This document shows, in pieces, positions 6,301 to 63,300 of a stretch of DNA of 64,000 nt (positions within the stretch are counted from its first letter, which is position 1; each line of letters begins with the position of its first letter). The notes under the pieces are model-generated. The model worked only from the letters and a program-made list of their open reading frames with translations. It was not told the DNA's origin and did not search any database. The position numbers were made by a program, and so were the translations under genes. The stretch comes from Ascidiella aspersa (taxonomy: Eukaryota). The DNA lies in contig OZ004613.1 of assembly GCA_963924565.1 (NCBI GenBank), positions 6,572,001-6,636,000 of the forward strand, given 5' to 3'.

Positions 6301-9300
6301 GTGTATAAAAAATAAAACGACAAGCAATCGTAAAACGTTAACAAACCTTGTGTTTTGTTTTCGCCATTGTCTCCATAAACATTTCTAAACCGTTGCCGGT
6401 AAATGTGAGTTGCCTGTAAGATTCCCCGATGCTGATGACCAACTCCCTTTGTGTTGCTCGAAGCACGTGACAGAGACTTGACACTTCACTGGGAAGAATC
6501 GTTCCACCCTTTAAACGAAGCTCTTCTGGGAGGGAATCGGCTACTTTTGCGGTGATTTCTTCATCGTTTGATTCCTGCGCCAAACTGCAAAGCTTAAACA
6601 AATCAGAGTCAAAGCTCTCGTCATCGTTTGATAAAAGTTGAGATCCAAGTGAATCAATCAGACCATTCAGCAAATCTTTCTTGCTGGCAACATCGGTTGA
6701 AGAGATTTTAAAAATAGGCTTTAGCTTACGGTGGAGTCCCGTGTTTAGCAACCCGAAAAGAAACCGAAGAACCATTTCCCACGTATTACTTTCCATGCTT
6801 TTCAGCAGCCCAGAAAATGTAGCCAGGTCAGTATCGAACAACAGCTTAAGTGATGTAAAAAATTCTTGCCAAAGAACATGAATGAAGAAGAATACATTTT
6901 CCCCTTCCAGTATACGAAGGTTGAGGTCGCTGGAGAAAACTTGCATGCTGAGAAAGTCCTCCATTCCTTCAGCATCAAGTCCGACTTCATCAAAGTCTTC
7001 TTCATCGAACGTGATCTTGTCGTTGAGCATTCCGTATAAAGCCAGGTCAGAAAGTTTGCGCAAAATCCTAGGGTGATCCCTAAACTTAGGAGAGCGAATA
7101 CAATCAGACACAAAAGCCGCAAACACATCTGCGAGCATAAAAGTGCCATCTTTAGTGCTATGCTTTATGATGTAAGGTGCGACGGTTTTCGCAAATATAG
7201 GAAGAAAGCACAAAGCCTTTGCGTGTGGGTTTTTACCAAGTGACTTGGTGACCTTCTCGTAATCTTCTTTCTCTGGGCAAACTTGTCGGAAATACAAATC
7301 TTGAGAGCTTTCGTTGAAACCGATTACCTTGACTACAAAGTGGGGCTTGCAATTAGGATGTAGCTTAAGAAAGGCTCCTGGTCGTGAAGTAAGGAGCTTG
7401 TGAGCATTAGCAAGAATGTCGCCACGGAGTAGGTTTTGTAGAATGACAACCGGCGTTGCGCGATCGTACAATCCGATCACTGGAGCATCCAAGTCCAGAT
7501 CTTTGAACCTAGGTTCGTCCAAACCATCCAGGAAGATAAACAGCTCGTTGGATTTGGAAAGCCTTTCCAGTATTTGATCATCTATTTCCTTTTTGTGTTT
7601 CCAGTTTGGGTCGGATGACAGGAATTCCAAAACCCCCATTTGTTTATTAAGATTTAAAGGCTTCAAGTATTTAAAAAGCCAATATCCCTTTTCCCCGGCA
7701 AATAATCCATCTACAAACTCCTTTAGTATTTGTAAGGTAGCTGTAGTTTTTCCAATTCCAGCTATTCCAGTCATGCCGACCACGTTGCCATGTCTCTCGA
7801 CGTAATCGTCATTTGCTGCTTTATTGCTATAGTTCTTTCTTTTAGCTTCATTGATTGCTTCTTCTTTTGCAGCAGTAAATAGTTGGTTGAGTTTAAGCGT
7901 GGTTGAGTTGACCTGGTTCTCTCTGAGTCGTTTCAACCCCTTTAAACCAAACTCCTCCAATGGTGCTTGCGAATCCCGAATGATGTCAAGAGGAACTGGG
8001 TTGCTTGGTAGAGTTCCGATGACCTTATTAGCTGCTTCCTGAGACTTTTCTTGCCATGATGCTGCTGAAAAAGTAAGAATTATTCTTTAAAGCTGAACGC
8101 CAACAAGGCAAAATAAATCGAATAAAATTGAAATGTTTTCCGCAATGTTAATGCACCCAATTTGTTCACCATTTTGTTTTATTATGTGAACCAGCACATA
8201 TGAATGTTTAACGTTCTTGTTATAAAAAATAGCAAACATTTTTTCTCTGCACCCTTAGCTTAACCCAGCCACCGAAGAGTGAGTAAATGCTTAACTTTAT
8301 TTTGCTTTAAAGCGAAACGCGAGCGAACGATAAGCTACAAATGCCTCCTGTAACCGTAGGAGCTGGGTTTGCACAATTTTATTCATAAACGTTTTTATTT
8401 ATTGCCAAACCATTCTTTGTGTTTTGGTTGTCTGAAAGTGATTTTGCTTTAAACAAAAGTTTCGCCGTTTATTTATTGTTACTGGTGATTACTTGTTATG
8501 TATCTCCCACTTAAAAACTCCTTAACAAGCAAAAAGCTGATAAACGAATTCACAGAAAATAGTAAAAGAGTGTTGTATTAATATTTTTAATTGGGATCAG
8601 CAATATCGGAAATCGTTCTAGCAAACGACATTACCATATTTGTAGTATCAATTTAGCGCCGTCGTATAACAATTTAAATAAAACGAAGACATGCCCCTTC
8701 CTTATGACCTACACAGGTTTATATTGTTTAAAATGGGGATACTATTGTATATTTAAAATGGGGGCTGATATTATATTGATTAAAATGGGGATACTTTTTA
8801 TTTTTTAACTTTTTGTTTTCTAAACAACGCAACCATTTCTGTACAGCTGCTACGGCGACTTAGGCGACTTAGGCGACTTAGGCGACTTAGGCAACTTAGG
8901 CGACTTAGGCGACTTAGGCGACTTAGGCGACATACGAGTCATAATTTTAGGCCCAACGACGGTTATATGATGCTTGTGTTTTATCAATTTGAATTCATGA
9001 TAAGTCGGTTCATTGCACGGAATGATGTAACTATTGTGGTGCAACCCACACTTGGTCATTCGTTTTACATCAAAGGTATCACCAACCGTTGACAAGTGAG
9101 GTCGCTGTTGAGTCGGAAGCCACTCCAGGTCCCGGTTGCTGGCCATATATATGAACGTCGCCATGGAGGTTTTGTATGGGACCTTGATGACCGTAAACAT
9201 CACCAATGTTTACAGGTAGGATATTGATTGGCTGGTTGTTTGCTGGCGGAAGCTGAGGTGAATTTTCATCCTGTATAAATACGTTCATGTGTAAATTTAA

Positions 9301-9881
9301 TTTAATTTCGACATATTCGGCTCATTTGACTATTTAAAATGTGTTTTACGTAAAACAGCTTTCAAAAAAATATCAAGTAAATAATGTGATTAAACAGAGA
9401 TATATAATGTGTAAAATTAACAGCCAATTTAATATGGTTTGAAGTGCAAATATTTCTCCATTATTTTTATTTAATAATGTTTGATTGAAAAATTGTTTCT
9501 TTATTTCTATATTACCATTCGCACTAAAATTAAGCCTTATGTTAAGAAATGTAAAAATCGTTGGTGGCTCTAACGGATGTTAAAGTATTTTAGCGTATAG
9601 TATCCACTACACAGCCTTGCAAATAAAATGTTTGAATTAAGTTAAATTTATCTGAACACAATTTTTCAAATTTTAAACTAAAAATTTTTTTTTTGACAAA
9701 ATTTTGACCTATTAGAAAACCATTGATTTGTTATGTTTTCGGGTTTATACAAAACAAAACCAAATGCTTATTTGATATTTATGAGATCGGTGACATGTAA
9801 CTAAAATTACAAATCAGCAAAGATTTATATTATTTTATTCCACCAAAAACTTACTTGATTTTGGTTTCGAGTATCGGCCAT
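227..9881 (-). CDS. NLR1: RHIM-like/NACHT/LRR receptor, multi-exon, 3' end runs off the window start
   Basis: Phase-compatible exons with AG/GT boundaries: 9881-9855 (MADTRNQNQ), 9270-9087 (RHIM-like), 8064-6347 (NACHT), then LRR exons 5254-5102, 4326-4171, 3283-3122, 1770-1609, 388-227. The same layout occurs in two paralogs. Confidence 0.85.
1609..1770 (-). CDS. NLR1 LRR exon (162 nt, type C; not in ORF track)
   Basis: LEKLDLSNNNMDSRGLSCLATSVHNINKLELEDC; CAG acceptor and GTAAGT donor. Confidence 0.85.
3122..3283 (-). CDS. NLR1 LRR exon (162 nt, type C)
   Basis: MELLELYNSKLDSRGLGCLA...; TAG acceptor and GTAAGT donor. Confidence 0.85.
4171..4326 (-). CDS. NLR1 LRR exon (156 nt, type B; not in ORF track)
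   Basis: MEEFSVDNLESSEISCLATSVHNISKLKLWEC; TAG acceptor and GTATGT donor. Confidence 0.8.
5102..5254 (-). CDS. NLR1 degenerate LRR exon (153 nt, type A; not in ORF track)
   Basis: MELVHVGTTGSCDLSTLSTCVRKINRLWLEKT...; homologous to 16556-16708, 17208-17360 and 56739-56891. Confidence 0.8.
5623..5794 (+). mobile_element. Short Penelope-like 3'-end remnant with 44-bp inverted arms
   Basis: 5623-5666 is the near-perfect reverse complement of 5751-5794; the arms enclose a hammerhead motif. Confidence 0.6.
5711..5754 (+). ncRNA. Minimal type I hammerhead ribozyme
   Basis: AACC-CTGATGA-GG(T)CAGC-loop-GCTGCC-GAAA-CG-TC-GGTT: full catalytic core, stem I AACC/GGTT, stem II, palindromic ACGT in place of stem III; predicted cleavage after GUC at 5750. 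Confidence 0.8.
6347..8064 (-). CDS. NLR1 NACHT exon
   Basis: Walker A GIAGIGKT, Walker B LFIFLDGLDE, sensor-1 LLTSRP, CFLP, winged-helix FIHVLWQEFF, LRFLFGLL. The ORF-track start at 7960 is an internal TTG; the exon starts at the CAG acceptor. Confidence 0.92.
8854..8931. repeat. 9-bp tandem repeat (GGCGACTTA) x ~8.5 in NLR1 intron 2
   Basis: Directly visible; one variant unit. Confidence 0.95.
9087..9270 (-). CDS. NLR1 exon 2, RHIM-like/His-Gly heptad motif
   Basis: PINILPVNIGDVYGHQGPIQNLHGDVHIYGQQ; phase 0 acceptor, phase 1 donor matching the NACHT exon. Confidence 0.8.
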
Positions 9882-12179: not shown

Positions 12180-12605
12180 ACATTATTGTCGCCTGCTTTG
12201 ACCCCTATGCTGAACCAGGTGTTGACCCCTGTGTTGACCCGTGCTTTGTCGCCTGTGTTGACCACTATGTTGAAACACGTGTTGATCCCTGCGTTGACCC
12301 GTGTGTTGTCCCGTGCTTTGACTTCAGTGTTTACCTCATGTTGATCCCGACCCTTAAGTTGAGCTTTGCTTTTACCATTGTGGTGTTTTATCGGACTTTG
12401 ACCTCCTAATATTCGAGGCACTGTTTGTTGACCTTTGTGGTGTCCCAAGATATGACATTGAACTCATAGCATTCGTCGCACTGTGTGTTGACCTTTGTGG
12501 TGTCCCAAGATATGACATTGAACTCATAGCATTCGTCGCACTGTGTGTTGACCTTTGTGGTGTCCCAAGATATGACATTGAACTCATAGCATTCGTCGCA
12601 CTGTG
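12180..12605. repeat. 60-bp tandem repeat x ~3 (12417-12605) next to a degenerate 12-bp (GTGTTGACCCCT-like) array
   Basis: Lines 12421, 12481 and 12541 are near identical; 12-bp periodicity at 12190-12345. Confidence 0.9.
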
Positions 12606-15600
12606 TCTTGTACTCTGCATTGACCTCTGTGATGACCCCTGTTGAAGTAAATATATATAGGCTTCCCGTTAACAGGTATAATAATTATCTATTTATGATA
12701 ATTTGCTTATTGATCTGGTTAATAATGTACATCTAAACCGGTGGTAGGATGTGGGCCATGGCCCAGTAGTTTGCGACGAGACCATTTCCAGTCGGTAAAT
12801 CGAGCTTTTTGGAATTATTGCAACTAAATATGTTTGTTTTACTAAAATAAATCTAAGCATATCAAAACGATAGGCCCGAGGTCATTTACCATGTTTTTTG
12901 CTATTTTTAAATTACATAAAGGCAAAAAAGAGCTTCGCACGAATTTTTGTTTTTCCATCATAAGCGTTTAAAGGAAACTACTCAGACTAAGGGCGCCATG
13001 CTTCTTACTCTGGAACTATGAAAATTATTTTGTTACACAGTTTTTCTGGTGATCGTAGATGAAATGTCACTGCCTAAAAATGGACCATGTTCGACGTTTA
13101 TATGAAGTCTATAAACAAATAGACTTAAGAAACCTTAATTTTCGGTTAAACTGATAATTTCGGTTAAACTGATCAGCAAATATCAAACAAAATTGGACTT
13201 GAAATACATTCAAGAAAAAGGTGGAAAAGCGAGCTTTTATTGTAGTAAAAACTCGTTTTTTCACCTTCTTTTAAACGTTAAACAAAGCGAAATCATGCAT
13301 TGCAAAAAGGTCAGAACTTGAATCCTTATTTAAGACAAGTTCGCTTTAACGCCACCGACTACTATTAAACTTTGATCTGCTTATTTCGCAAATAGCTGCT
13401 TGGTTGCCATTGCGGTTGCACATTCGATATAGTAGCACTGTGACGTCACACGTCTAAACACTGACGTCAATAGTGTCGCAACGTTGCCCTGGCAACATAT
13501 TCTTACGTTTTGAGTGCCTACCTTGCGCAGAGAATCCACGTCAGCTTCATCGATGCCGCAATTATCCAACACCAGCTCTTTTACATTGTGGGCACAAGTT
13601 CGGAGGAAAGCGAGTCCTTGCGATCCCAACTTGTTGTAGCTTAGGTCCAACCTCGTCATCTATATAATCACAGCATGATATAAGATACAATCAGGTGTTG
13701 GGCTACATATAGCTTGCTAAGTTTGAAACCAGTGCATGCAATTTTACCCGGAGAAAAACAATTCAGTTAAATAACCTTTGGCAAAATAGCTTTATATGAT
13801 GTTTTTACCTATTTATGAGCCTAAATGGATTAAATAACACGTAATTAACTATGCGTTTTGCAACTATTTGAAAAAAATCTTTGAAATCAACCTGAAAGTT
13901 CATTAAAATAACATTTCCAAAGGTGACATAGAAAAGTTAGATCGGATATTTTGTATTAAAGATGAATAAATGTGCATGACTGCCCAAATTTACTTTAGAA
14001 GTGCTGTATGTTGTTTATTTTAAGACTGTTTTTTTTACAGTCATAAAGCGTGGTTAATGTTATTCGTTACTATATGTAAGACTTTTTTTCATGGATGTTT
14101 TTTAAATCGTAACTTTTATTTTAATGTATAGAAGGATGTATCTTTATTGAATCCAAAGACATTGACAGCAGGTTTCTGCTTGTCATTCACTGTTCCGCAA
14201 ACGCCTATTTTGAAACCCCCAAAATTTTAGAGACCGTGCTGGGTGTTTTGGGATAGCATGTTTCCTCACCAGGAAGATATTGTTATCAGTTAATCTTAGC
14301 CATTCGAATTTTGTTTGATAAATTACTGTTTGACAGATCCATCGCGTTGTATAGGCTATAGCGTTACCAGGTTAAAGGAAAGCGCTTTAGAGTTATTCAG
14401 TAAATATATCAGTGTGAGTCAATGGTGTTAATAAAGTAATTTTTTAGAAACTTGTTTAAACGTGAACAATACTTATATTTTTTCGTATGGTTTTTTCACC
14501 TGATTATCATTTTAATATTCAACACATCCTTCAGTCAAATAACACACACTTACAGGTCGATCCATTCGTGATATGGCGTCAGTTAGAGGTTGCAGATCGG
14601 AACCAGCGATTTCGCAATAGGTTAATTCCAGCTGGTTGATGTTGTGTAAACTTGTTGCCAGGCAACTCAAACCACGTGAAGTCAGCTTTTTCCAACACAG
14701 GTCTAACAATTCCATCTACATCAAGCAGGGTTTCTTAAACTTTTTTTAATACGGTCCCAAAAAATTCTGGATCGTATGAACCATGTTGGGCATAAAGTTT
14801 TTTCCGAGATGACGTTTTTATGGGTTTAAAAAAAGAAGTTTCGATCAAACTGGTCAGCAAGTGCCAAACAAAATTCGAGTCTAAATACACTTGACGAGAA
14901 GGTGGAAAAGCGAGTTTTGTTAAAGTCTGACCATAATCATTACACCTCAGCAGTATGGTGCTACCTGCAGCACAGGTTAAACAACACTATTTCTGAAGAT
15001 ATAATGAACTATGGTAAAACAGTGCTAAAATTCAAATAAATCTAAATCCAGAAAGCTCTTGGAGGACCGTGGAACATTTTAACTGGCAAAATTGTTGTTA
15101 AAACGTGTAGTTTTAAAGAATTTAACAGCGACAATTATAGGTCGGACTTTCGCGCGAAGTGCAAAAGTAATTGTGTTTGTTTGATTTAAAATTTACGTCT
15201 TTATTCATGATTACAATGAAACGGTGTAATCAAATATCTAAAAACATGATAAATTTAATTGCCAATTAATAGCTTCTGACGTAGGCAATTCGAATATGGC
15301 CGTTAAAAACTTTCGATGTTAATATTTAAAAACGATTTATAACCGAAAATCAATACGATAAGTTACTTATATTGATGATATTCCCAAAATAAACGAATCA
15401 AGTTGCATTTACGTAACGAGCCAGTTTGGAAAAGAGCTGACACACGATTTCTGTATTCGCTTATACATGTGCGTTTATTTGCTAATATAACCACTAACAC
15501 AAACATACAGGCATATTTCGTTGTGAGATGGCGTCGGCTAGAGGTTGTAGATTTGACTCAGCAGTGTCGCAGTTCCACAACTTCAGCTTGTTGATGTTGC

Positions 15601-18600
15601 TTGCACTTGTTGCCAGGCAACTCAACTCACGTGACCCCAAGTTGACCACTCTGAGTTCTTCCATCTACTCAAAATAGAGTTAGGTTATCTTACGGATAAA
15701 AACTATAATTTAAAAAACAGAACAGAAACAGCGTATCGTGGATATAAACCAAAAAAGTGGATAAGGTTTGATTTAGATTTTACTCGATAAATATGTTCGC
15801 TAATATATTTAATTTCTATTAAAACAAAAACAGGAAACGGAAATGCTACGACAAAAAGTATATATGCAAGAATTAACATACGTTAGATTTGATAACATTA
15901 TTTAATAAATAACTTTTCAATAATAGATGCATACATACATGTACAACACGAACAACATACATGTACAACAACAACTGTCATATAGCCCTTCTGAAGTCAT
16001 TTTTGATCAAGGTTTACGCTTTACATGTCATAGTACTCCGAAAGTCGTCACCAGACATTTCGACAATCACCGCAGGCAAGTTGTTTTCTAAAGCAGGGGT
16101 TCTTAAACCATGGACCCCTTAGGGGTATGTCAACTAGTTTCAGGGGTTCATGAAGCCTTAATTAATTGAAATATAAGTGTATATTTAAAAAGCAATAATT
16201 TTTTTCCGAAAAAGTGTTTAACTAAACGTAAAATGATTTTGCACAGAATGTATATTAAGACTTCACTGAGCATGCTTTCACATTTTTGGACCGGAAACAT
16301 CAGATTTTTAAAGTTTATTTGTATTGTGACATCAATTTATGACGTCATCTTTAAACTTCCGTGCCTATATACACTGGTCTACGCAAAGCAAAAATAGTTT
16401 TTAAGTGTCCGTGGTAAATAAAGTTTAAGAACCCCTCTTCTAAAGCAAACTGGTCTTGCTTGTATGAAAATGCGTAATTGATGGACTGATTCGGTTGATG
16501 ACTCACGGCATAATAACTATTATGATAAAACATTGTTAGCTGTTGGATAACTTACAGGTGTTTCTCTGCGTCCAATTGCTTCAGTAAGAACCTCGAAACC
16601 GGACAGATCACCCGTGTTGTTCAACCACAGGCGGTTTATCTTATGGACGCAGGTAGACAAGGAATTTAGGTCACGTGATCCAGTTGACGTCACACGAATA
16701 TATTCCATCTACAAAATACAGCAAGATATGCCAGGGGAGGGCGACAACTTATGCGCCTATCAGTTTGTCTCGCCGCTTCCATTCTTGACCTACCTCTTGT
16801 CTATGACGTAGTCCATTGGTTCTCAACCCTTTTTATGACTGGGAACCCTTAAACGTTTTAAAACTGAATCCTCCAGACGAAACTTAGTTGTGAAGAGGGC
16901 ATTTACATCTGTACACTATACTAAGGAAATATAACCTCGCAAGATTGTCGCGTTTAAGCCTCTAAATGAGTACTCTATGTTTAGTATCTGAGTAATAATT
17001 ACCCTTGCTGAAGGATAGTTTAGCGGAAGGGTCTGCAATCTGGCTTACAAGCCACAAGTGACTTTTCATCTAGTTTTATACGGCTCTCATTTTCAGGTTT
17101 TAATTGAGCCCTGTCAGATTTTCTGTGCTTATAGGATTACGCCCGCCCAACGGCCATGACCATTTTGACAAACCATCATGTCGATAATAGCTAGTGAGTT
17201 GACTTACCGGTTTTTCTCTGCGTGCAATCGCTTTAGTAAGAACCTCGAAACCGGACGGATCGCTCGTATTCTTGAACTCCAGGCGGTTTATCTTATGAAC
17301 GCAGGTGGACAAGTCAGTGACCTCAGGTAGTCCAGTTATCTCGACACGTACATAATCCATCTATAAAATGAAAACAGGATATGTTTGACTTCGGTAACTA
17401 ATATATAAAGGTTCTCAAGCAAATGCAAAAAAAATAAATGGCGTGGTCCTAAGCACAAGTCCAAGCTACTCGCTGTTTAATCAGAAAATCAAATAAAACA
17501 AAAGCAGAGCATAAAGTTAAAAAAACGCATTTCGCGTTTTTAGATAAATACACAAAGTCAATAAAAGACACGTAATTCTTTACTGAACAAAGTTATACAA
17601 ATCCCGTTGGTTATTTGTCTTTATTTCTAGCGGTTCAATTTCCGCGTCCTGGGGCGAAGTATTTACCGGTTTTGTGGCAGTTTCATTCCCAATGGGTCCA
17701 CTGACTCCACTGTACTTCGAAAATGTTTTGCTATGAATATAAATGTGCCTTTTGGGGGAAAATGTACCGTGGCTGTGAAAAGGTGCAGCGTTTGTTTAGC
17801 ATTTCCCGATGCTGGGTTGTGCTTGTTTTGTGATGTGACCACAATCCTTTTCGATTAACCCGTGCAGAAAAGCGGAATATATGAGAACGCCCTTTTAATA
17901 ACCGAGCGTCTTAATATGAGCTACCAGGGTCGTTGGTGAATGAGACGTCACCTCCTTGTTAAGGACGTAGGTGCACTTAAACCAGTGTTGTAATGACCTG
18001 TTAAATAAGTCACTATATATAAATGACTCGACTTAAGTCTAAGTAATGACTTATGTTTTTAAATGACTTCAAGTGGACTGAAGTAATTTAAAAATCACTA
18101 AATAAAACTACTTATAAACGCCACGGAAAACGACCATAGGATTAGCCTATTGTTATATTTTGCACCACACAAAGGCCCGATGTTTAGACCAGTCTGAGAT
18201 TGCACCATTTTACATGAAGTCGTAAACCCAAGCTGTTTGCGACAAACATTTAAGAAATGTTACATCAACTTGATACTACTTATTTATATTTTTAAAAACG
18301 ACAAGGAATCGTAAAACTTCACAAACCTGGTGTTTTGTTTTCGCTATTGTCTCCATCAACATTCCTAAGCAGTCGCCAGTAAACTTAACGGGATAGAAAT
18401 CACCGATGCTGATGACGAGCTGCCTGTCGGGTGTTTGAAGCACGTGACAGAGACTTGACACTTCACTTGGAAGGATCGTTCCACTCTTTATGCAAAGCGT
18501 TCTAGGTAGGTAATCAGCAACTTTTGCGGCGATTTCTTCATCATTTGATTCCTGCGCCAAACTGCAAAGCTCAAACAATTTGGAGTTAAAGCTTTTGCCA

Positions 18601-21600
18601 GCGTTTGATAAAAGTTGAGATCCAAGCGAATCAATCAGACCTTTAAGCAAACTTTTTTTGCTGGCAATATCGGTGGAAGAGATTTTGAAAATAGGCTTTA
18701 GCTTACGGTGGAGTTTTGTATTTAGCAACCCAAAAAGAAACCGAAGAATCATTTCCCAAGTATTACTTTCCATGCTTCGTAACAGATCAGAAAATGTAGC
18801 TACGTCCGTATCGAACAACAGCTTTAGTGATGTAAAAAATTCTTGCCAAAGAACATGAATAAAAAGGAACACTTTATCCCCTTCCAGTATACGAAGGTTG
18901 AGGTCGCTAGAGAAAACTTGCATGTTGAGAAAGTCCTCCATTCCTTCAGTATCAAGTCCAACTTTATCAAAGTCTTCTTCTTCGAATGTGATCTTGTCAT
19001 TGAGCATTCCATTTAAAGCCAGGTCAGAAAGTTTGCGCAGAATTCTGGGGTGTTCCTTAAACTTAGGTGAGCGAATACAATCGGACACAAAAGCCGCAAA
19101 CACATCTGTCAGTGTGAAAGTGTCATGTTCAGTGCCATGTTTTTTTATGTAGGGGACGATGGTTTTGGCAAACATAGGAAGAAAACACATAGCCTTGGCT
19201 GCTGGACATTTACCAAGTGAGTTGATAACTTTCTCATAATCTTCTTTCTCCGGGCAAATTTGTCGGAAATACAAATCTTGAGAGCTCACATTGAAGCCGA
19301 TTACCCTGACAACAAAGCAGGGCTTGCAACTTGGGTGCAGCTTGAGAAATGCTCCCGGTCTTGAAGTAAGCAGCTTGTGAGCATTGGGAAGAATGTCGCC
19401 ACGGAGTAGGTTTTGTAGAATGACAACCGGCGTTGCGCGATCGTACAATCCGATCACTGGAGCATCCAAGTCAAAATCTTTGAACCTTAATTCGTCCAAA
19501 CCATCCAGGAAGATAAACAGGTTGTTGGACTTGGAAAGCCTTTCCAGTATTTGATCATCCATTTCTTTTGTGTGTTTCCAGTTAGGGTTGGATGACAGGA
19601 ATTCCAGAACACCTGTTTGTTTATTAAGATCTAAATCCTTCAAGTATTTGAACAGCAAATGGTCCCTTTCGTTCGCAGGTAGTCTATCTGCAACGTCCTT
19701 TAGAGTCTGTAAGACAGCTGTAGTCTTGCCAATTCCAGCTATTCCAGTCATACCGACCACGTTGCCATGTCTCTCGACGTAATCGTCATTTGCTGCTTTA
19801 TTGCTAAATCCCAACATTTCCGATTCATTGATTGCTTCTTCTTTAGCCGCAGAAAACAGTTGGTTGAGCTTGAGCATGGTTGAGTTGTCCTGGTTGCCTC
19901 CAAGTCGCAGCAATCCTCTTGAACCAAATTCCTCCAATACTGCTTGGAAATCCCGAATGACATCAAGAGGAACTGAGTTTATTGGTAGAGTCCCGATGAT
20001 CTTTTCAGCTGTTTCCCAAGACTTCTCCTCCCATGATGCCGCTAATGATGTAAAAAGGATTTCGTTTCTCCAGTTTGTATTTAAGTAAGTTTAAAAGCAC
20101 ATTTGAATAAATTACTTCCTTGGCTATGTTTAAGTGATATGCCGTCATATTAACTAACATTTTGCTGTTGTGCGCCATTATTCTCTTTTGGTCACGGAAC
20201 AGTTAATAAAAAAATACACTTATAGAAGCTATAAATGCAATGCTTTTTATTCCATGTTAATAAAGCATTATATATGTTGTGAGTCGCGTTCAGGTAATAA
20301 AAGTATTGTCGAGTGGCGGGATTTGTAGTTACCATTTTTGGTAAATATAACCTGGTGAACAGTTACACACTGCTCTAGATCAGTGGTTATTAACATTTTG
20401 ACACTGGCGGCCAAATAAAAATACTAAAAGCGTTTTTTCGGAGGGTAACGAGAAATCTAAAGCAGATAGCTCACTGAGACAACTAGGAAACGTTATTAAT
20501 AAACAACTATACTGTAGTATTATACAGGGTTGCTAGAAGTTGCGGGATTCGATCTGGTTAACAACTTGTTCGCAAACTTACTCATGTTAAAAGCTTGACG
20601 TATATCCTTTGTACAGGTTTAAAAATACAAATGGTTTTAAGAGCTGCATCTTTGTTGTGCGCATGCGAGTTACCTGTGATTGGGTGCATCTTTCACTAAT
20701 TTGGGATATAATTTTATTATCCTTTGGTTTGCGCGAACCGTCAAAACCGATTTATTCTCACAACAGGTTAATGTAGGTAATCTGGAAATTTTAGCAGGAA
20801 ATTTAGACATTTTAGGATAATTACTTATTTTAGCGTTATGTTTGTGCGAGGCACCACAATTAAGGTAACATTCGAAGCTCGACAGCCAATTTTTCACACA
20901 AATTTGCTAAATTTTCGGGATTAATCTTTTATTTTTGTCGAACAGGCAAAAATTATATCGTACCGGTACCGATCCGCAGACCGAACAACTGTTCTAGAGT
21001 GCCTAGTTTGTGTCGTAAACGTTTAAAATCTCACAAGAATAAAAATACAACCGTTTCAAAGGGCCAGGTTAATTGTCAAAAACGTTTATTGATGTTCTAC
21101 ATCAAAACTATCACTTACCATAAGAGGTCGCTGTTGAGTCGTGTACAGTTTCCGGTCCGAGTTGGTTGCCATGGAAATGATAGACGTTGCCATGAACGTT
21201 ATGAATAGGACCTTCATGCTGTTGAATGTCTCCAATTTGCATATTTAATTGGTCAACATTGATTTGCTGGCTGCTGATTTTTTGTAAATTTTGAGCTGCT
21301 TGTTCATCCTATCAAAACCATTTTTAATTTAGTTTTACTTTTTTAACTGCAAACGGTTTATCTATGAATATTGTTTAAATAACATACAGGCACACAAAAA
21401 TATATACTGTATACATACATATATATATATGTGTGTTTAAGTATTTTTTGATATGTTTTTTGATATCACTTTAAAAGTGTCGGCCTGGAAAAAAAGAGAA
21501 TTGCTTGCACTAAGCCTTACCTCCAAATTACCATATACCAACTATTCGATAAACTCTATACTGGCTTAAAATATTATATTTTTGTTTTTAATTTGTACAT

Positions 21601-21663
21601 TGTAATTACCATATTCGATTTAGGTTGATTTGCTTCTTTGTTTCCGTTTCGAATGTCGGCCAT
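12372..21663 (-). CDS. NLR2: RHIM-like/NACHT/LRR receptor, apparently complete and intact
   Basis: Exons 21663-21610 (MADIRNGNKEANQPKSNM), 21308-21119 (RHIM-like), 20041-18327 (NACHT), LRR exons 17360-17208, 16708-16556, 15664-15509, 14715-14554, 13659-13522, and a candidate terminal exon 12638-12372 (less certain). All phases are compatible. Confidence 0.85.
18327..20041 (-). CDS. NLR2 NACHT exon
   Basis: GIAGIGKT, LFIFLDGLDE, LLTSRP, FIHVLWQEFF; uninterrupted frame. Confidence 0.92.
21119..21308 (-). CDS. NLR2 exon 2, RHIM-like/His-Gly heptad motif (not in ORF track)
   Basis: Hand translation: DEQAAQNLQKISSQQINVDQLNMQIGDIQQHEGPIHNVHGNVYHFHGNQLGPETVHDSTATSY; TAG acceptor and GTAAGT donor. 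Confidence 0.85.
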
Positions 21664-24484: not shown

Positions 24485-25871
24485 GGAGCATAATGGTTGG
24501 AGGTTGTAGTAAGACGTAATAAGAATATCAAAGCCCATACAGAAGCAGGTATCATTTTGAACGTTTCGAATAACTCTTTATTAATTTAAATTTTACACAC
24601 AGATCGACGGCGTCGCAATGGGTTCCCCGATCGCCCCTCTGCTTGCTGATGTTTTCATGAACTGGTTAATTGATCAAACCGCGGAAAACCCAGCACAACC
24701 CCATCTTTTATGCCGCTATGTAGATGACATTTTTGCCGTATTCTACAACAGTGATGAAATTGAGGCTTTTCTCTGCACTCTAAATGGCATCCATCCAAAT
24801 ATCCAGTTTACCTGTGAGTGGGAAAAGGAAAATAATCTGCCCTTTCTGGATGTACTGGTTAAGAAAATGCCTTATGGACACAGCACTCACGTACATCGCA
24901 AGCCTACCCATACAGGCCTCCTAACAAGATGGTCAAGTTTTGTTCCATTTAAATACAAGCGCAACCTGATAAATAGCCTATTACACCGGGCTTACAGAAT
25001 TTGTAGCACTTACATGGGAATGCACCACGAATTCCGCAACATTTCTAAAATGTTGATGATGAATGGTTACCCCAAGCAGTTTATTGATACTGCCATTTAC
25101 AGGTTTCTTGACCAAAAACACAAGGACGTGCAAAACAAAACGGTTGAACATGAAGAAAACAAAACGTTGTATACCATCACAATGAAGCTCCCGTTTATTG
25201 GAAAAACATCGATGAATATATGCAAAGAACTTACTACCTTCGTAGCGCGCAACACCGAAAATAAAGTCAAATTTATTTTCAGCCACGAAACCACACCTAT
25301 CAGTTCGTTTTTTATACACAAGGACCACCAGCATGTGTTACGTCGTTCAGGAGTTATATACAAAGTGCAATGTTCGTGCGGATCGACTTATATTGGACAA
25401 ACCAAGCGTAACCTACAAGTGCGTATGGACAATCACGACCCTTCATCACGGTCCACGCAGGACACAGACGTGGCAAGACATTTGCATCAAAATTCTGGTC
25501 ACAAAATCGATTTTAAAAACCCCAAGATTCTTGCGACAAGTCGGTGTTGGCGTCGTCTTTTGATTAAGGAAACCGTAGAAATAACACGGCACAACCCGGA
25601 AATTAACGCAGACCAAGCTTCTATACCACTCTATCTTTTCAACATCTGATCACGTGGATTGCCTTATCTGCTATCGGCGACCTACCTTCTAATCGCCGCA
25701 CACCCGGTTTAGATTATGTATCTATCCACGTTTCCTTCTTTCTGATGTCTGTCTTAGCACTATATATACACTTACCATCAGTGACTTCTCTCTATGTTGA
25801 AAATGAATAAAGAGTTATTCGAAACGTTCAAAATGATACCTGCTTCTGTATGGGCTTTGATATTCTTATTA
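24485..25871 (+). mobile_element. Penelope-like retroelement, 5'-truncated, with an inverted copy of its 3' end
   Basis: RT + GIY-YIG ORF; perfect 66-bp inverted repeat 24517-24582 / 25806-25871; flanking direct repeat TTAATACCTTTCT (24470-24482, 25869-25881). Confidence 0.92.
24591..25649 (+). CDS. Penelope-like reverse transcriptase C-terminal half + GIY-YIG endonuclease (partial)
   Basis: YTQIDGVAMGSP, RYVDD, LPFLDV, HRKPTHT, NGYP, GVIYKVQCSCGSTYIGQT...H...H; the N-terminal RT motifs are missing. Confidence 0.92.
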   Translation, partial: FYTQIDGVAMGSPIAPLLADVFMNWLIDQTAENPAQPHLLCRYVDDIFAVFYNSDEIEAFLCTLNGIHPNIQFTCEWEKENNLPFLDVLVKKMPYGHSTHVHRKPTHTGLLTRWSSFVPFKYKRNLINSLLHRAYRICSTYMGMHHEFRNISKMLMMNGYPKQFIDTAIYRFLDQKHKDVQNKTVEHEENKTLYTITMKLPFIGKTSMNICKELTTFVARNTENKVKFIFSHETTPISSFFIHKDHQHVLRRSGVIYKVQCSCGSTYIGQTKRNLQVRMDNHDPSSRSTQDTDVARHLHQNSGHKIDFKNPKILATSRCWRRLLIKETVEITRHNPEINADQASIPLYLFNI

Positions 25872-28405: not shown

Positions 28406-29179
28406 TCAAGCCGAGTATCCACCAGCCACTTCCAATGTCGCTCCATTGATGTAAGAGCTTTCATCGCTTGCCAGAAACAAACAAGCATTAGCAACTTCAA
28501 CTGGTTTTCCCATTCGTCCCATTGGAACCATTTTCCTCAAGGCGTCAAGTAGCACCTTATTTGCACTTGGCAACATTGGGGTATCAATTGGACCTGGCAG
28601 GACAGCATTGCACCTTACACCAAACTTTCCAACCTCAATGCACGTCGTCTTTGTAAACGCGATCAGTCCAGCTTTAGAAGCAGCGTAGGCCGAAGCATTT
28701 TGATATCCGATTTTAGCCGCCAAACTTGAGATGTTAACGATACTTGCACCTGTTAAATCCTTGTTCTCACAAAGGTCAAGTTGCTTAAGAAATTCTCTCG
28801 TAAAAAGGAAGGCGCCAATTAGATTAACGTCCAAAAAACTGTTGAATGAAGCCAGGGTTGTTTCTACGATTGGGCACAATTGAAAAATACCAGCGCAGTT
28901 GACCAGAATATTGCATTTCTGTCCAAACTGAGAGTGTGCACTTGAGAAAGCTTCTGATGCCGAACTTTCTTTAGATACATTGCATTGAATCATAGCTACA
29001 TTGTCTTTAAACTTTGCATAAAACCTTTCATAGATTTCTTTAAGATTATCTTTATTGCAATCCACCATCATAACTTTGGAACCTTCGGCTAAAAAGCGTT
29101 CGCAAATAGCTTCCCCGATGCCCCCTGCGGCTCCAGTAACAACGGCCACTTTACCGTTTAACCTACCAACTTGCGACAT
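28406..29179 (-). CDS. HSD17B8-like: Classical short-chain dehydrogenase/reductase (HSD17B8/FabG-like), copy A, intact, intronless CDS
   Basis: TGAAGGIG, Asp after beta-2 (NAD-type), NCAG, NISS, YAASK, PG, FLASD..YING; start MSQVG chosen by alignment of the copies. Confidence 0.9.
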   Translation of the reverse strand: MSQVGRLNGKVAVVTGAAGGIGEAICERFLAEGSKVMMVDCNKDNLKEIYERFYAKFKDNVAMIQCNVSKESSASEAFSSAHSQFGQKCNILVNCAGIFQLCPIVETTLASFNSFLDVNLIGAFLFTREFLKQLDLCENKDLTGASIVNISSLAAKIGYQNASAYAASKAGLIAFTKTTCIEVGKFGVRCNAVLPGPIDTPMLPSANKVLLDALRKMVPMGRMGKPVEVANACLFLASDESSYINGATLEVAGGYSA

Positions 29180-32119
29180 TATTACAGCCTGAAACACAAA
29201 ACACGTAAAAAAGAATGACAATCTGAATAAGTGTCTTTCCATTAAGTCTATATAACATGCTGCTGCAGTTGTAATACGAATCCCATCAAGCATTAACTAA
29301 AATCGCATTGCCTCAAAACCATCGCAGAAAAACTGGTTATATCGCCTAAGGCAAAACCACAGCCAAACACAGAGCAAAACTTGCTGATGCCTTTATCTGT
29401 TATGTATGAGTGATTTAAGTTTAGAATAATTTGTATTTCAAAAGAGAATCCGACCATTGCAAAATGGTGACGTTATGACGTTTTTGCTAGGCGCAGTTCA
29501 TTGATATATATTTAAGTGTTTTCAAAGATATATCATTTTACGGGTATTTCCAGAACTGTGAATTTTGCCTGGAATTGTTATGTAATGCTTACAACCTTGC
29601 CGCTGTTTATGGAATTAATGCGACGCATTTTATCGTATTTGTTTCTAGACTATAAAAATATTTATGCCCGGGTTTAACTGTTACTTGGATATTTGAATCT
29701 TCGTGCAACAAAGGAGAAGGGCTCAAAATAAATCGTGTTTTCTGACTAGGTAAGAATTCCACTTAACGAGTGAAGGAGTTTGCAACTAGATTTCATAAAT
29801 TATCAAAACTTTAATCATTCTTCAAAAACGCTGTTCCTATTGCTGTAACTGTTGCAACTGATATAGCCTTTTTAGTGTATATTAGGCTAAATTTCCTAAA
29901 CTGCTGAATACTGCGTTGCTTTTTGCATCTGCACGAATACTTATCAGTTCGTGTGGCGTCATTGTGCATTTGAATAATTGTCGTCAAACGAAGTCGTGAA
30001 AGACATTACGTCAAAACGTGGACGACTGTTAAGTTGCCATAAATCTTCTGACTGAAAAAGTTTCATCACAACAAAATGTGTACTTTGCAAGGAAATGACG
30101 GGCTAAATCAGGGTGGTCCAAACCCAGGCCCGCTGGCCACATATGGCCTGTAACAGCATTGTTCGTGGACAGTGAAGCACTGTTGAATTAATATACCGTG
30201 TACCATTAATGGTTTGATGTTTGATCAACGAAATATAAGGGACCAACAAACAGATGGTCAAATTGTGTATTTTTTAAAACATTCTTCGGGTTACGCTATT
30301 AAATAAACCGGTAGCCTGTCGCTTATCAAGTTCGGATCCAGATAGCAGCAGGCGTATATTATTTGCCAAGTGATAGGTCTGTTTGAGGGTCTTTTTAATA
30401 TCAACACAAAAAAGAAAATACGACGAATTGGATTTACTATTTTTGTCACTTCAAAACAACTTATCGGCACAATTTATAGAGCTTCTGAAAAGTACATTTT
30501 TAGGCTTTCTCTGTGACTGTATTTAGGCCAGTGGTCGGCAAATTTTTTTGTTGCGGCCCATAATGTTTTTTCAAGAAATTTGAAGGCCTACTACGTGAAA
30601 CAAATGACGTTACAAAGTTACGATATAAAACACTTTAATCGTAAAAAATCTGCGTTTAGTACGAAAAGTTATAGTCTCATTTAATAAAAATTTACGACTA
30701 TAAGTAACACAGCGAAACATGCCATAGTATGCATATTGTATTTGGGTTTGAACGATTTAATAAAGTAGGCCTATAGGTTTTTGCGTGGTGCGTAGCAAGG
30801 TTGCCCTATGATACAACACTGACACAAAAGGAAAAAAAAACACACACTATAGCCAGACCATTTTAAAAATACAGTACAGTAAATGTACTGCTATCACGCG
30901 TCCCATAACTACATGAAAAAACAGAAATATTAGAAAACAGCCCATGGCCCACTAAACTTGCTCAAAAACCCACATTTCCGTGGCCCACAGTTTGCCGACA
31001 ATGCTGTGGGTTAATGCCCTTTCAGTCAAATTCTATAGCTAACACATTTTTTGCGCAAGACGATAACACCTTTGTAATTTGTCGATAGTGTAGATATGCA
31101 ACAAACACTACCGCTGGAAAACAATATTACAAATGGACATGAATTCCTCTCTGCCTTGCCAATTACTAACGATCCCAATAGATAGGCACACCCACTTGTA
31201 TGAAAACTTCACTGTAGAGAACTTGGTAGCCAAAGCTTTGCTGCTATACCATCGAAAAAAGTTAAGAAACACTGTTAAGTCCTTACTACCAATGGTTTCG
31301 TCTCTCTGCCTTGCCAATTACTAACGATCCCAATAGATAGGCACACCTATCGCTCAATAGAGTTTGAGAAAACAAACACATTCAGACGCGGAAATATGTT
31401 AGACAGTTAAGCGATTAAAAAAGCTGGCCTCAGGACAGTTCAAGCAGCTTAGAACAAAATATGACCCCCCCCAAAAAAAAACTAATCTACATTTTGATTT
31501 AAGCTAAAGAAATTTGAAGTAAAACCCCCCCGAAAAATACTAAACGTGCAAAGAATGCAATGCAAATTTACCATTGTATTTTTGCATTTATTGTCGTAAG
31601 ACCCCAAACATACCATTTAAATTAGATGCAGTTTTTTGAAAAATATCATTCTATTTACAATCGTTACCTTGGTTGGACACGTACAAGTCGGTTCAATAAC
31701 CTTAATGATCTTGGGTGTTATTACAATAATTATCCTATCTAAACCGTTGTGATACAATACTTTTATATCGTATCTCAACGATTTTAATAGGCCTATATAT
31801 TAACATATATACAGTATAGTTATAGCATACTTAGCTATATACTTTTAAACCTGTAATTTTTTTATATTTGTCATTCGTATAGCGAATAATACAAGCAAGT
31901 ATATTACATCAATTTAACTTGTTACATGACCGCCGAAACAAAGTTACTTGATCGCCGAAACAGGGGTAACAGCATACATGTTTATTGGTACTAACGAGAT
32001 AACTGGTTCACATTTTCCACGCGGCCAACAATCAGACAAGCGAGTATAGTAAAATAATGGTGATAGATTAATATAGGAACTTGTTTGTAAAACTTCCTTA
32101 ACCGTTGTAATTCTTAAGT

Positions 32120-43725: not shown

Positions 43726-44901
<1,176 letters not shown>

Positions 44902-55908: not shown

Positions 55909-57014
55909 CCCTAAAGTTTAGGAAAATAAAGCCGCAAGGTAAACAATAGATCACAAAACGAATTTTGAAAGTAAACTTACAGGTCGATCTATTTGTGATA
56001 TGGCATCGGTTAACGGTTCAAGATTTGATCCAGAAATGTCGCAGAATCTTAAAACCAGCTGGTTGATGCTGCGTACACTTGTTGCCAGGCAACTCACCTC
56101 ACGTGACCCCAACTTGTCTACTCTAAGTTTTTCCATCTAAAGCATAAATAGGTGTTGGTAGGTTAACTTTACCTAAAAAACCTAATGAAAAAGTCAAATG
56201 GCGCGGTGTAAGATTCAAACGGAAACAAATGATTTACACCGAAAAATTCTTATCGGCAATTTTTCAGTTTAATAATTTCATTGAGCTTTATTTTATTTTT
56301 TTTTTAGTTTCAATATTATTTTTAGCTTAAAAATTTAATTCGGACTTTTAAAAGTATGGATCATCGTTGTCCTGGTGAACAAAAGGATGGCTGGTTTAGC
56401 TAATACGGATTAGCTATCGCCTTGAGTTTATGTTTGTTACTTTAGGTGTAAGAGGTGGTAATTTGCAATCGAATTTTAACATTAAGGATTTGTAAAATTT
56501 CATTTTAAAACAAAAAATTAATCAAAAGCTTTCTGAGTTTACAGTCAAAGAACAATCCAAATACAGTTACCTATTTGTTATAATTCTGATATGTAAATCA
56601 ATTTCTAATGGAAAATGTGAAATAGTAAACACGATATTAACCGAAACGGCTTTAAATAATAGCAAGCATAAAAAACTAGTAAGGGTTAGTGATCATAACG
56701 ATACGTTCATGTTAATTGTTGCACGAAAGTTAACTTACAGGTGTTTCTCTGCGTGCGATTGCTTCAGTAAGAACTTCGAAACCGGATAGGTCACCCGTGT
56801 TGTCTAACCCTAGGCGGTTTATCTTATGAACGCAGGTGGACAAGGCAGTGAAGTCACGTGATCCAGTTGTCTTCAAGCACGCTTCATCCATCTACAAACC
56901 AAGAACAAGGCTTTATAATACAGGGGTGCGAATTGATCTATTTTTCGTCGTTTGATTAGATTAAGTGGTATATTAAAGCCGAAAAAATAAAAGTTTGATA
57001 AAAAGTTTACAAAC

Positions 57015-58715
57015 CTTATTGCAGGTTTTCGCAACTGTTCCCATCAGCACTTCTAAACCATTGCCTGTAAATGTAACTGAGGAGGCATTAATGACCATTT
57101 TTCTGTCAGTTCCGTGAAGCACATGGCAGAGACTTGACACTTCACTGGGAAGAAGTGTTCCACTTTTCATTTGAATCTCTTCAGGAAGGAACTCGGCAAC
57201 TGACGCTTTATATCTTTATCATTTAGTTCCTGTGCCAAACTGCAGAGCCTAAACATTTTGGAGGTGAAACTCTTACCATCGTTTAACAAAAGTTGAGATC
57301 CAAGCAAATCAAACAGACCTTTTAGCAAATGTTTTTTGCTGGCAACATCAGTGGTAGAGATTTTAAAAATAGGCTTTAGCTTACGGTGGAGTTTTGTATT
57401 TAGCAACCCGAAAAGAAACCGAAGAACCATTTCCCAAGTAGAGCTTTCCATTTTTTGTAGCAGCCCAGAAAACAAGCTTAAGTCTGTTTCGAAAAAGAGT
57501 TTAAGTGCTGTGAAAAACTCTTGCCATAGAAGATGAATAAAGAAGAATACTTTTCCCCCTCCAGTATACGAAGGTTGAGGTCGCTGGATAAAACTTGCAT
57601 GTTGAGAAAGTCCTCCAATCCTTCAGCATCAAGTCCGACTTCATCAAAGTCTTCTTCGTCGAATGTGATCTGATCATTGAGCATTCCGCTTAAAGCCAAG
57701 CCTGAAAGTTTGCTCAAAATGCCGAGATCTTCTTTGAACTTAGGCGAGTGAATACAGTCAGACAAAAAAGAGGCAAACACATCTGTCAGTGTGAAAGTGC
57801 CATCGTTAGTGCCATGCTTTATGATGTAAGGTGCGACGGTTTTGGCAAATATAGGAAGAAAGCACATCGCTTTAGCGGCTGGGTTTTGACTAAGTGATTT
57901 TGTGACCTTCTCATAATCTTCTTGCTTTGGGCAAATTTGTCGGAAATACAAATTTTGAGAGTTTTCGTTAAAACCGATTACCTTGACTACAAAGTGGGGC
58001 TTGCAATTAGGATGTAGCTTAAGAAATGCTCCCGGTCGTGAAGTAAGCAGCTTGTGAGCATTGGCAAGAATGTCGCCACGGAGTAGGTTTTGTAGAATGA
58101 CAACCGGCGTTGCGCGATCGTACAATCCGATCACTGGAGCATCCAAGTCAAGATCCTTGAACCTAGGTTCGTCCAAACCATCCAGGAAGATAAACAGCTT
58201 GTTGGATTTGGAAAGCCTTTCCAGAATTTGATTATCTATTTCCTTTGTGTGTTTCCAGTTTGGGTCGGATGACAGAAATTCCAGTACACCTATTTGTTTG
58301 TTAAGATCCATTTTCTTCAAGTATTTGAAAAGTAAATAGCCTCTTTCATCTGCTGGTAGTCTTTTTGCAACCTCCTTTAGTGTCTGTAAACTAGCTGTAG
58401 TTTTCCCAATTCCAGCTATTCCAGTCATACCGACCACGTTGCCATGTCTCTCCACGTAATCGTCACATGCTGCCTTATTGCTAAATTCCCTGCTTTCGGC
58501 TTCATTGATTGCTTCGTGTTTTGCAGCAGTAAATAATTGTTGAACTTCGAGCATGATGAGGTTCACTTCGTTGTAAAGGCGAGTAAGTCCTTCGACACCA
58601 AACTCCTCCAATGGTGCTTGCGAATCCCGAACGATGTCAAGGGGAACTGAGTTTCTTGGTAGAGTCCCGACGACCTTATCAGCTGTTGTCTGAACCTTTT
58701 CCTGCCATGAGACCG
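57015..58715 (-). CDS. NLR3 NACHT exon (split over three ORFs by frameshifts)
   Basis: GIAGIGKT, LFIFLDGLDE, LLTSRP; ORFs 57478-58806, 57167-57475 and 56973-57170 are consecutive pieces. Confidence 0.88.
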
Positions 58716-60316: not shown

Positions 60317-63300
60317 CTGTGGTAACAAAACGTGCATTTGGTAAATTAAAGTACATTCGGGATTATGGATTTCCGATACTTGATCTTCTATTCCGATACC
60401 GATACCCGATATTTTCGACAAAAATTATCGTAATCCGATACCTAATGACGTCATTTCTATGGCCCACTAAGCAAAATAGATGAATTGGAAACATTCAAAA
60501 GCCCTTTTGTAGGTTATTATTTTTTAGGTTATGAGGGCTAAAGAGTTTAGTTACCTCGATTTATTAGCTTACTATAATTTTTGATAAATTTATCTTTCAA
60601 GGTTAAATCGCCGCGTTGAAAGGTAAATCATGGCTAAAGTACATGCATTAATTTGGTTTCGGATCGCCATCGAGTATCGGACGAGTACCGATTCCATCAC
60701 TTGGGGGTTATAGGTATCGGCTCCGGTCCGATATGTATCGGACATATCTATACTCGTGATATTGCATTTACAAAAAGACGAAATACATAGAAATGAGTAA
60801 GCTAGTTACGGTCAGTGATAATGCTGTGTTAGCATGTTAAAGCCAGCCACATTTTGTTTAGCCGAAAGGAATTCAATGAACTGTTTGTGGACACGGCATT
60901 TGCCGCCCAAGACTATCCTGTGGTGAAATTCGAGCTGACGACCTCGTCCGTTCTGTTTTCGTCGTTACATGGAGTGAGCTACGTATGCTCATTGATACAA
61001 CAAAAGTCGCCTGTAACTACTACATCCTTATCTAGTTTTAAAACATTTTAACGATTCGAGCAACACTAAATTATAGCCTTGATATCTACTTTAGTGTTAA
61101 AATATTATTATTGCAAGTTTTACTAAAACTTCGTTGATTTACAGATTTATAATATAACCAGGGCGTCATGGACCCACAGCCATTAGAAAATAAAGGCTTT
61201 TGTCGGAATGGCGTTCTATCGTAGTTCAAAGGGCTTTTCAGCAGCATAACTAACTAAAAAACTTGTTAGAATCAAATGTGTAATAGCAATAAAACTAAAA
61301 AACTTCCAAAAATACCCATTTGTAACATAACAGTGCATGACTATCGAGCGAGTGAATTAAAGAGGAGAAAAGCATTATTTACATTCCCCGATGGACGTTG
61401 CCTATGCTACCTTACACCGTTTAATAATAAGCAAGGTTTACCCCAAAATTATATTTTTGTGCCAAATTTTGCTGCCCAAACTGAATATGTTTCGAATCCT
61501 TCTTAAATTAATGTATGTTTAGCCACTCCTTACAAAATGCCAGCTATACCTGAATTATCTCCCAACTTCCAGCTGCTTTCACACATCTATAACATTTTTG
61601 GGTACACTATGCACCGAACTGTAATGTAACTTGATAATGAATTTCAAAGCCACAAAAGGTCGAGTAGATCGACAAAGCTTGATCAAGACATTTGGATACG
61701 AACTTGTATCATACGAACTACGAACTTGACATTAATTAAACGTGATGCAAGTTCTTATCGCCATGTCTTAATCGAAATCAAATTTTGAATGAGATATTTA
61801 GGTGGCACTATATAAAGACAAATTGTTGTGTGTTCTCGATATTGTTCTACTTGATTTTCTACTTTGATCTGATGAAGCATGGTTGTGCGAAAGCTTGTCG
61901 AGAATTCAATAAAATTTGTCTTTATATAGCGCCACCTGATTATCCTATTATCAAGATATAACGTCTTTGCAATGTGTTTTTTTACATCGAGCAACACCTA
62001 CAGTCTCCCAAAAAGACTTACTTGATGTCGGTTTAAGGGGTCGGCCATTTCGTTGTTGCTGCTTTGCTGGCAATTCGATAAACAGTTATAACAAGCTTTA
62101 ACTTTTCTGTAAAATGAAATACACTATCAGGTTAGATGAGAAACGTTACTTAATTAAAAATTTGCTCAAAAACTATTGCTGAAAAGCCATGTTCGCGGCC
62201 TAAAGTATAAAGCACGGATAGGTCGAAAAGAACTGTGGACCAAACTCAGGTCAACGTGAGCACTTACTGCCGACCAGAATGACGCTTTATACGGATCGGC
62301 GCCAATACTTATATCAGCCATTCATTTAAACTAAAGTTCCGTCGTTATATGAACACGATGACTTTTGTTGTATGTTAATTATGTTCTTTTTAATATTTTT
62401 GATATCGTGGACTATTTTTGGCAAGGGCTGAACATCTGGGCACAAAGGCGCCACGTTGTCTCTTTTGCAACCTGAAACGAATCAAAGGTTGCTGCTATGT
62501 TACGGGTTACAAAAAGCTCAATCTGTTTTCTTCAGCTTTAATAACATAGGGTTGGTTCGGAAAACGCATGGGCGACTAATTTTGCACTTGGATAAACTGC
62601 TATTTGGTTTGTAATACTAGAAATTTATCGAAGTGCATATTGTGGGAAAAAATGAATTTAAACGCCATTAATTGTAAGAACTGGGATATGTTATTTTTTT
62701 AAACCATCCAATCCAGTTTTTATTCAAAGCCGTTTTTCCGATGATATGAAGTTTTTTGAGTGAAGTAGCTACCATAAAGCAGTCAGGTTTTTAGGAATAA
62801 AGATTTTTTCTTTCGGTGTTTTAAAGAATATAACAGTTTTGTAAAAAATAATAGGATTTTTGACAAAGTTTGGGTATAAGAAACATTGTTAAATTTAAAT
62901 TTAGATTTTGTAAACCTCTACAAAAGCTAACCACTAAATACTTATATTTCACAACATGTAAAGGGTAAATTTAATCGATCATTGCTTAAAATGCTTGTTC
63001 CTGTTTTGACCAACACAGTAAACACAGCGACTGTGTTTTTTCAATCAACAACTAGAAAGTGTTGGACAAGGAACGAGCTGGAACGTGACTCTTCACAATG
63101 ACTGGGGCTAAATATACGACACGCTGTCTCGGCGTCCTTGGAACCCGAAACTATTCAACGGCGGTTGTTTTTATTTTGAAGGTTTTTGTTGTTGGATACG
63201 CAACCGTATGTCCCCAGCAGTTCTCTTTATTTTGGCTGAATCGCTATTGAGAAGCTGTTTTAATGCCCTTGCTAAATTTGTGCACCGCAGCCGACGATAT

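Follow-up and report, generated by a model that had tools for sequence, protein, structure and literature searches.

The NLR genes in this stretch of the Ascidiella aspersa genome carry, just ahead of the NACHT exon, a short exon with a glycine-turn motif that is real, constrained and well placed for signalling. In our judgement the case is evenly balanced for this being a RHIM-like amyloid signalling motif of a 61-gene NACHT clade, in which it would replace a death-fold domain. This reading is favoured by the spliced exon, its effector position, conserved Gly, Asp and Ile columns, purifying selection and the failure to find a folded head domain; it is weakened by a proline in the core, failed RHIM tests and the failure to find an effector. 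The question addressed is how the expanded NLR sets of invertebrates relay their signal when they lack CARD, PYD and DEATH domains.

The window, by which we mean the whole analysed stretch of 64,000 nucleotides, holds three such genes, NLR1, NLR2 and NLR3. The three peptides quoted in the earlier note are all present on its minus strand, with first glycines at 9204 (NLR1), 21233 (NLR2) and 60244 (NLR3), and each lies on a spliced coding exon just ahead of the NACHT exon. The features are as follows.

21610..21663, minus strand: first coding exon of NLR2, with 18 codons and a phase-0 donor; the ATG is preceded by an in-frame stop, and the exon is conserved in paralogs
21119..21308, minus strand: NLR2 motif exon, 190 nt, AG/GT ends, phase 0 to 1, 63 codons plus 1 nt in an open frame
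21171..21242, minus strand: NLR2 core, an M-Q-I-G tetrad and three Gly-led heptads, Gly codons starting at 21233, 21212 and 21191
18276..20041, minus strand: NLR2 NACHT-WH-HD2 exon, acceptor at 20041; the 3' limit given is the ORF end, the donor not being fixed
14515..17360, minus strand: four NLR2 LRR-like exons (about 17181-17360, 16532-16708, 15497-15664 and 14515-14715), repeated units of about 170 nt with a leucine pattern
9855..9881, minus strand: NLR1 first coding exon, 9 codons
9087..9270, minus strand: NLR1 motif exon, commonest 7+7 type, V-N-I-G tetrad
6338..8064, minus strand: NLR1 NACHT-WH-HD2 exon, followed by five LRR-like exons between 167 and 5254
62022..62048, minus strand: NLR3 first coding exon, 9 codons
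60127..60316, minus strand: NLR3 motif exon, QIG, His-rich
56982..58715, minus strand: NLR3 NACHT-WH-HD2 exon, split across two frames near 57480-57620, by either a frameshift or an assembly error

In all three genes the motif exon lies 1.0-1.4 kb upstream of the long NACHT-WH-HD2 exon, and in NLR2 it consists of a low-complexity flank, the Gly-turn core and a Ser/Thr-rich flank. About 180 residues precede the P-loop of NLR2, 98 of them within the NACHT exon, and the motif sits 35-70 residues from the protein start. When the genes were scored as animal NLRs, PF05729 and PF17779 were above cutoff and PF17776 just below it (E 2e-7 to 4e-6); the NLR2 exon matched PF05729 at E 2e-15, together with PF17779 and PF17776. 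The putative C-terminal LRRs appear as leucine-patterned repeated exons, for which Pfam gave one sub-cutoff LRR match (on an NLR1 exon) and no match on the two window exons tested. The window further contains tandem intronless short-chain dehydrogenase genes between NLR2 and NLR3 (28406-47885, minus strand; four intact ORFs and fragments), as well as a truncated reverse-transcriptase ORF with inverted ends (24585-25649, plus strand; PF00078, E 8e-6), which we take from its layout to be Penelope-like. Tandem repeats of 12/60 bp and 9 bp, with no coding role established, lie upstream of and inside NLR1 (12186-12610 and 8854-8931).

Transcript evidence comes from about 6% of one RNA run (X3). Three reads span the NLR1 splice joint 9087-8064, from motif exon to NACHT exon, with GT..AG ends, and eight further reads connect the motif exon with the first coding exon of a paralog type. 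Most reads come from paralogs, being only 85-95% alike to the window exons, and the zero reads for NLR2's own motif exon are uninformative at that depth. Nine reads with loose ends at 9920 suggest that NLR1 has an upstream non-coding exon. Across the clade, the first coding exon was located in 24 of the 61 genes and is only 9-18 codons long in every one of them, so the motif occupies the usual position of a death-fold or effector domain. The same 24 genes all have an architecture of the amyloid-motif type, that is, a short N-terminal motif on a NACHT receptor without a folded effector domain. For another 16 genes, about 10 kb of upstream sequence contained no recognisable first exon, and none of the 69 ORFs there (at least 82 codons) had a death-fold match; for the remaining 21, upstream sequence was covered over at most 1.5 kb.

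The search covered a genome of 308 Mb in 75 contigs, which also contains a GH6 domain scoring above the Pfam cutoff, a domain that among animals marks tunicates. With the NLR2 motif exon as query it returned 53 genomic copies, and eight more were recovered upstream of clade NACHT exons that had lacked an initial match, giving 61 NLR-linked copies with 54 distinct exons. Motif and NACHT exons correspond one to one, with NACHT 1.0-4.5 kb downstream, in 58/58 genes on C7, and they are also paired in all three on C5 and C6. A degenerate pattern spanning the first heptad and a half, G-D-[VI]-x4-G-[PT]-I, exceeds chance: it matches the genome 56 times and its reversed control 11 times. Clade motif exons account for 41 of these matches, and nine of the 15 others were inspected, none being a motif exon. 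The NLR repertoire as a whole amounts to at least 150 genes, since 150 of 266 NACHT candidates were scored.

Within the 61 copies, the near-invariant core columns are an Asn, a Gly-Asp, a Gly-x-Ile and a third Gly. The core is rich in Gly, Ile, Asn, His, Val, Tyr, Asp and Gln and devoid of Lys and Cys, and the invariant G-P-I of most copies places a proline inside it. The tetrad is VNIG in 48 copies, MQIG in two and something else in 11. The QIG core, which the earlier note had treated as general, is thus confined to two copies, and NLR1 itself has V-N-I-G. Spacing between glycines is 7+7 in 47 copies (one with Arg replacing the first Gly) and 6+9 in 14. Between 2.4 and 6.65 Mb on C7, exons of the two spacings are intermingled in the NACHT tree, where one group containing both has support of 95/86 (146 columns only); this suggests that they have been swapped between paralogs.

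Selection was estimated over 27 disjoint pairs of the 54 distinct exons by a simple count of codons, uncorrected for transitions or recombination, and for this reason the signal counts as modest evidence. On these estimates, the core appears to be under purifying selection and more constrained than its flanks: dN/dS was 0.43 for the core, compared with 0.60 for the N-flank and 1.02 for the C-flank, and core pN/pS was 0.44 against 0.82 in the pooled flanks (z=-2.45, p=0.014). These values bear on the idea that the exon is a weakly constrained spacer, whose copies are alike through gene conversion and recent duplication within an array of 4 Mb and whose heptads are remnants of a 21-nt internal duplication. 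Such an origin would fit the youth of the clade's copies, which are recent and probably recombine, the one tetrad common to 48 of them, a C-flank dN/dS of about 1, and neighbouring NLR2 heptads that match at 9-10 of 21 bases; it would also fit the damage seen in some genes (a stop in exon 1 of two copies, and the frameshift in NLR3, if genuine). It does not sit well, however, with Gly, Asp, Ile and Asn columns that are invariant across 54 distinct exons with synonymously varying codons, with a core more constrained than the flanks of the same exon, or with a Gly-Asp turn retained between clades that share only 50-60% identity in NACHT, and we regard the spacer explanation as quite improbable.

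The earlier note had drawn attention to a 7-residue Gly periodicity with stacked histidines, and had proposed a distinct heptad class whose His ladders would make assembly dependent on pH or Zn/Cu and set partner specificity. The periodicity is real in the 47 copies with 7+7 spacing, where offset-7 self-similarity exceeded all 2000 shuffles in eight distinct types (related to each other, hence not independent). It is absent, on the other hand, from the 14 copies with 6+9 spacing, whose three distinct types have no period 7 (p=0.61) and peaks at offsets 16 and 9; a HET-s style reading of these as two pseudo-repeats was considered, for which three related types are not decisive. The 7+7 spacing is therefore one clade's strand length, the majority variant, and not a defining register. 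The pattern that the note had written as G-[DNP]-[IV]-x-x-x-[HEQ] likewise stood in part: among the 47 copies, [HEQ] fills position 7 of both first heptads in 38, but of all three in only two. Residues at that position are Gln 38, Arg 6, His 2 and Glu 1 in the first heptad, His 26, Gln 12, Tyr 8 and Val 1 in the second, and Gly 38 and His 2 in the third.

Stacked histidines do not generalise either. Heptad position 7 is His at least twice in only two of the 61 copies, NLR2 and NLR3, which branch outside an 18-row tree group (93/88) containing the other sampled clade members, and stacking is therefore a paralog-specific, two-gene feature. Conservation of the heptad register across genome-wide paralogs had been set as a check beforehand; as 14 of the 61 copies depart from the register and stacked His is found in two, the conserved pH or metal switch fails the note's own test. 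In its favour one can still cite the period of 7 in the majority of copies, one well-kept His, and His-rich heads that recur in other clades (e.g., L105 and L058); yet the heptad-end residue is mostly Gln, Arg, Tyr or Gly, and seven copies have a single His across the whole core. We consider the ladder proposal very improbable and, being limited to two genes, of little weight. A weaker role for histidine is conceivable, given that His makes up 11% of core residues and that the best-kept one, two residues ahead of the second Gly, is present in 50 copies (Asn or Ser in the other 11). The note's more general remark that the motif differs among paralogs holds for spacing, tetrads and His content alike.

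Its remark that the motif is distinct from canonical RHIMs was also borne out. The RHIM core tetrad is defined as (V/I)-Q-(V/I/L/C)-G in the accessible part of 10.64898/2026.02.19.706818, and none of the 61 copies has it in strict form. The Pfam RHIM, PP and HET-s models gave no match for 20 core variants, and the RHIM profile PF12721 matched neither these 20 cores nor eight sister-clade motifs at E 10; run genome-wide, the RHIM model had 14 matches, none at motif exons. A PDB sequence search returned no match at E 10, and the ESM Atlas offered no lead (best score 0.79). Searches for NACHT homologs returned exon-only gene calls and vertebrate NLRPs, none carrying the motif. A profile search of 1.84 billion representatives had two matches, both repeat artefacts, and one of longer proteins had three, which were TPR-repeat artefacts. 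In a literature search that took in a minority of subscription papers, with published motif logos in figures and supplements outside the comparison, we found no account of such a motif in tunicate NLRs.

A further important aspect is the search for a partner. We scanned 1.0 Mb of sequence from 143 non-NLR loci with the motif profiles. Among them were parts of 40 of the 74 RIPK-like loci, covered largely on the downstream side of the kinase exon, of 20 caspase loci, covered over 6 kb upstream, and of 20 death-domain loci and one MLKL locus. No motif-bearing effector in these 143 loci survived inspection, in an exon-wise search that misses intron-split motifs, and no sampled RIPK-like locus had the motif downstream of the kinase. 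Since these loci were read mostly on that side, a motif ahead of the kinase was covered by the genome-wide searches alone. Single matches were rejected beside MLKL (wrong phase for the MLKL donor) and beside a RIPK-like gene (acceptor not seen), as were two on C1, which were non-coding. The genome has at least 74 RIPK-like kinase exons (on C2, C3 and others), and in those sampled the C-terminal regions are TPR-like or Kelch-like, with a death domain at the end of one gene; the MLKL gene lies at C1:6.21 Mb.

Searches with a short core revealed a 62nd motif copy at C6:31280369-31280461 (plus strand), in an 81-codon frame and 70% identical over 27 residues to the copy at C6:21.83 Mb. It sits inside a cluster of eight caspase genes, with no adjoining NACHT among the 150 scored of 266 candidates and no RIPK-like kinase exon on C6 among the at least 74 listed. 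This copy could belong to a partner or to a distant NLR, or be a stray exon.

Related exons occur in other NLR clades of this genome. A sister clade has eight exons with one motif unit, three of them with L-Q-I-G-D, followed by a hydrophobic helix (hhalign against the window clade, E 8e-7). These exons (L193-L200, C7:29.85-31.40 Mb) mostly lie ahead of a NACHT exon, L198 having none within the 20 kb examined; with 19-residue hydropathy of 1.9-2.7 in the four measured, the single-unit genes are likely membrane-anchored NLRs. In another group, sister on the NACHT tree (L090-L093 and L261, C7:0.3-1.7 Mb), an intron splits the motif at the Gly/Asp turn, the first exon ending in Q-A-G (or R/E) and the next starting with D-N-A/T and ending in V-H-I. 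In further clades such exons are rich in Val, Ile, Asn and His and contain a turn of the Gly-Asp or Gly-Asn kind. The head exon of L102, L103 and L255 (C3:6.47 Mb; C8:0.3-1.7 Mb) combines a 9-residue Thr/Glu/Val/Gln/Asn repeat with a 6-residue repeat, in variable copy numbers and a beta-solenoid-like pattern, and that of L105 (C3:8.36 Mb) has a very His-rich tract ahead of a V-G-D-V-H core, which makes it a stronger metal-binding candidate than the genes of the window. Several sampled NLR loci had no such beta/Gly-turn exon. A fixed exon filter, designed after examples had been seen, retained 4/24 NLR sense strands, 0/24 antisense and 0/138 control strands. With a profile built without the window clade, the NLR3 exon ranks first of 2918 window peptides at E 0.36, and because of this E-value homology with the motifs of the distant clades is only suggestive.

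This diversity helps to weigh another explanation, namely that the core docks as a short linear motif onto a folded partner, or folds back as an inhibitory strand on the receptor's own NACHT or LRR region, in either case without amyloid. Several observations suit it: a conserved island amid disordered flanks, the core proline, the lack of a motif-bearing partner in our searches, and an AlphaFold2 monomer with no stable structure predicted (pLDDT 49), which is uninformative and compatible with the amyloid reading too. Strand lengths and repeat numbers, by contrast, vary freely between clades (7+7, 6+9, a single unit, 9- and 6-residue repeats) with the Gly-Asp turn kept, a combination that would better suit a self-stacking fold than a fixed pocket. 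We therefore think docking unlikely.

Returning to the amyloid reading, the motif-NACHT architecture itself is known for fungal NWD2 and for amphioxus BF82280, according to the accessible portion of PMC4262963. The amphioxus protein (Branchiostoma), a RHIM-NACHT-repeat receptor, is as described there likewise an animal NLR with a short non-globular motif at the usual CARD-family position; the motif reported here differs in escaping Pfam RHIM, in having Asn for Gln in most tetrads and in having two further Gly-led segments. The fungal and bacterial motifs NWD2/HET-S (HRAM), PP, sigma and BASS1-10 share with it, in the available sections of PMC7889193, PMC9815663 and 10.1101/2020.01.06.895854, a short N-terminus with a 20-25 residue Gly-turn motif and several motif variants within one genome. 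What defines those systems, however, is an effector that bears the matching motif and is usually the product of a neighbouring gene; we found no such effector here, and in the same sections their repeats are WD, TPR or ANK, whereas those here are LRR-like. Against the HRAM, PP, sigma and BASS families there was no match to Pfam models, the BASS and PUASM logos lying outside the comparison. The mammalian RIPK1/RIPK3 RHIM, in the accessible part of 10.64898/2026.02.19.706818, has a similar hydrophobic-x-hydrophobic-Gly tetrad followed by Asp and glycines flanking short strands, but differs in its strict tetrad, and the core here holds a proline. By analogy, we rate at about even the prospect that the motif is a functional parallel of the amphioxus RHIM-NACHT and fungal motif-NACHT receptors, without being a Pfam RHIM.

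How such a motif could work can be pictured from these systems. A ligand sensed by the LRR-like tail would cause the NACHT domain to oligomerise, and the NACHT ring would gather several motif copies and nucleate their assembly, by analogy with NWD2, in which NACHT oligomerisation nucleates the motif (PMC9815663, PMC7889193, in the parts available). The short Val/Ile/Tyr/His strands between the conserved glycines would adopt a beta-arch or serpentine fold, with successive copies stacked in register; the motif is plausibly a self-assembling beta-arch. In the S-shaped folds of RIPK amyloids, glycines flank short strands and form turns, and prolines reduce RHIM nucleation (both from the accessible part of 10.64898/2026.02.19.706818). 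The resulting stack would serve as a template for a partner whose motif is compatible, or draw in further receptors.

A broader proposal, which we offer as a tentative and somewhat doubtful possibility, is that sea squirts have swapped death-fold signalling, across much of a repertoire of at least 150 NLRs, for diversified exon-encoded amyloid motifs, in clade-specific variants that could be exchanged between NACHT backbones, each templating its own effector. If true, the fungal NWD2/HET-S system would have a counterpart among animals, in a lineage for which the absence of RHIMs has been reported (tunicates appear to lack them in the accessible part of Kajava et al. 2014, PMC4262963), and the copy at C6:31.28 Mb would mark the clade's effector. 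Because the conserved 25-residue motif comes in natural variants (7+7, 6+9, His-rich, single-unit and intron-split), short peptides could be used to test amyloid signalling and seeding specificity in the sister group of vertebrates.
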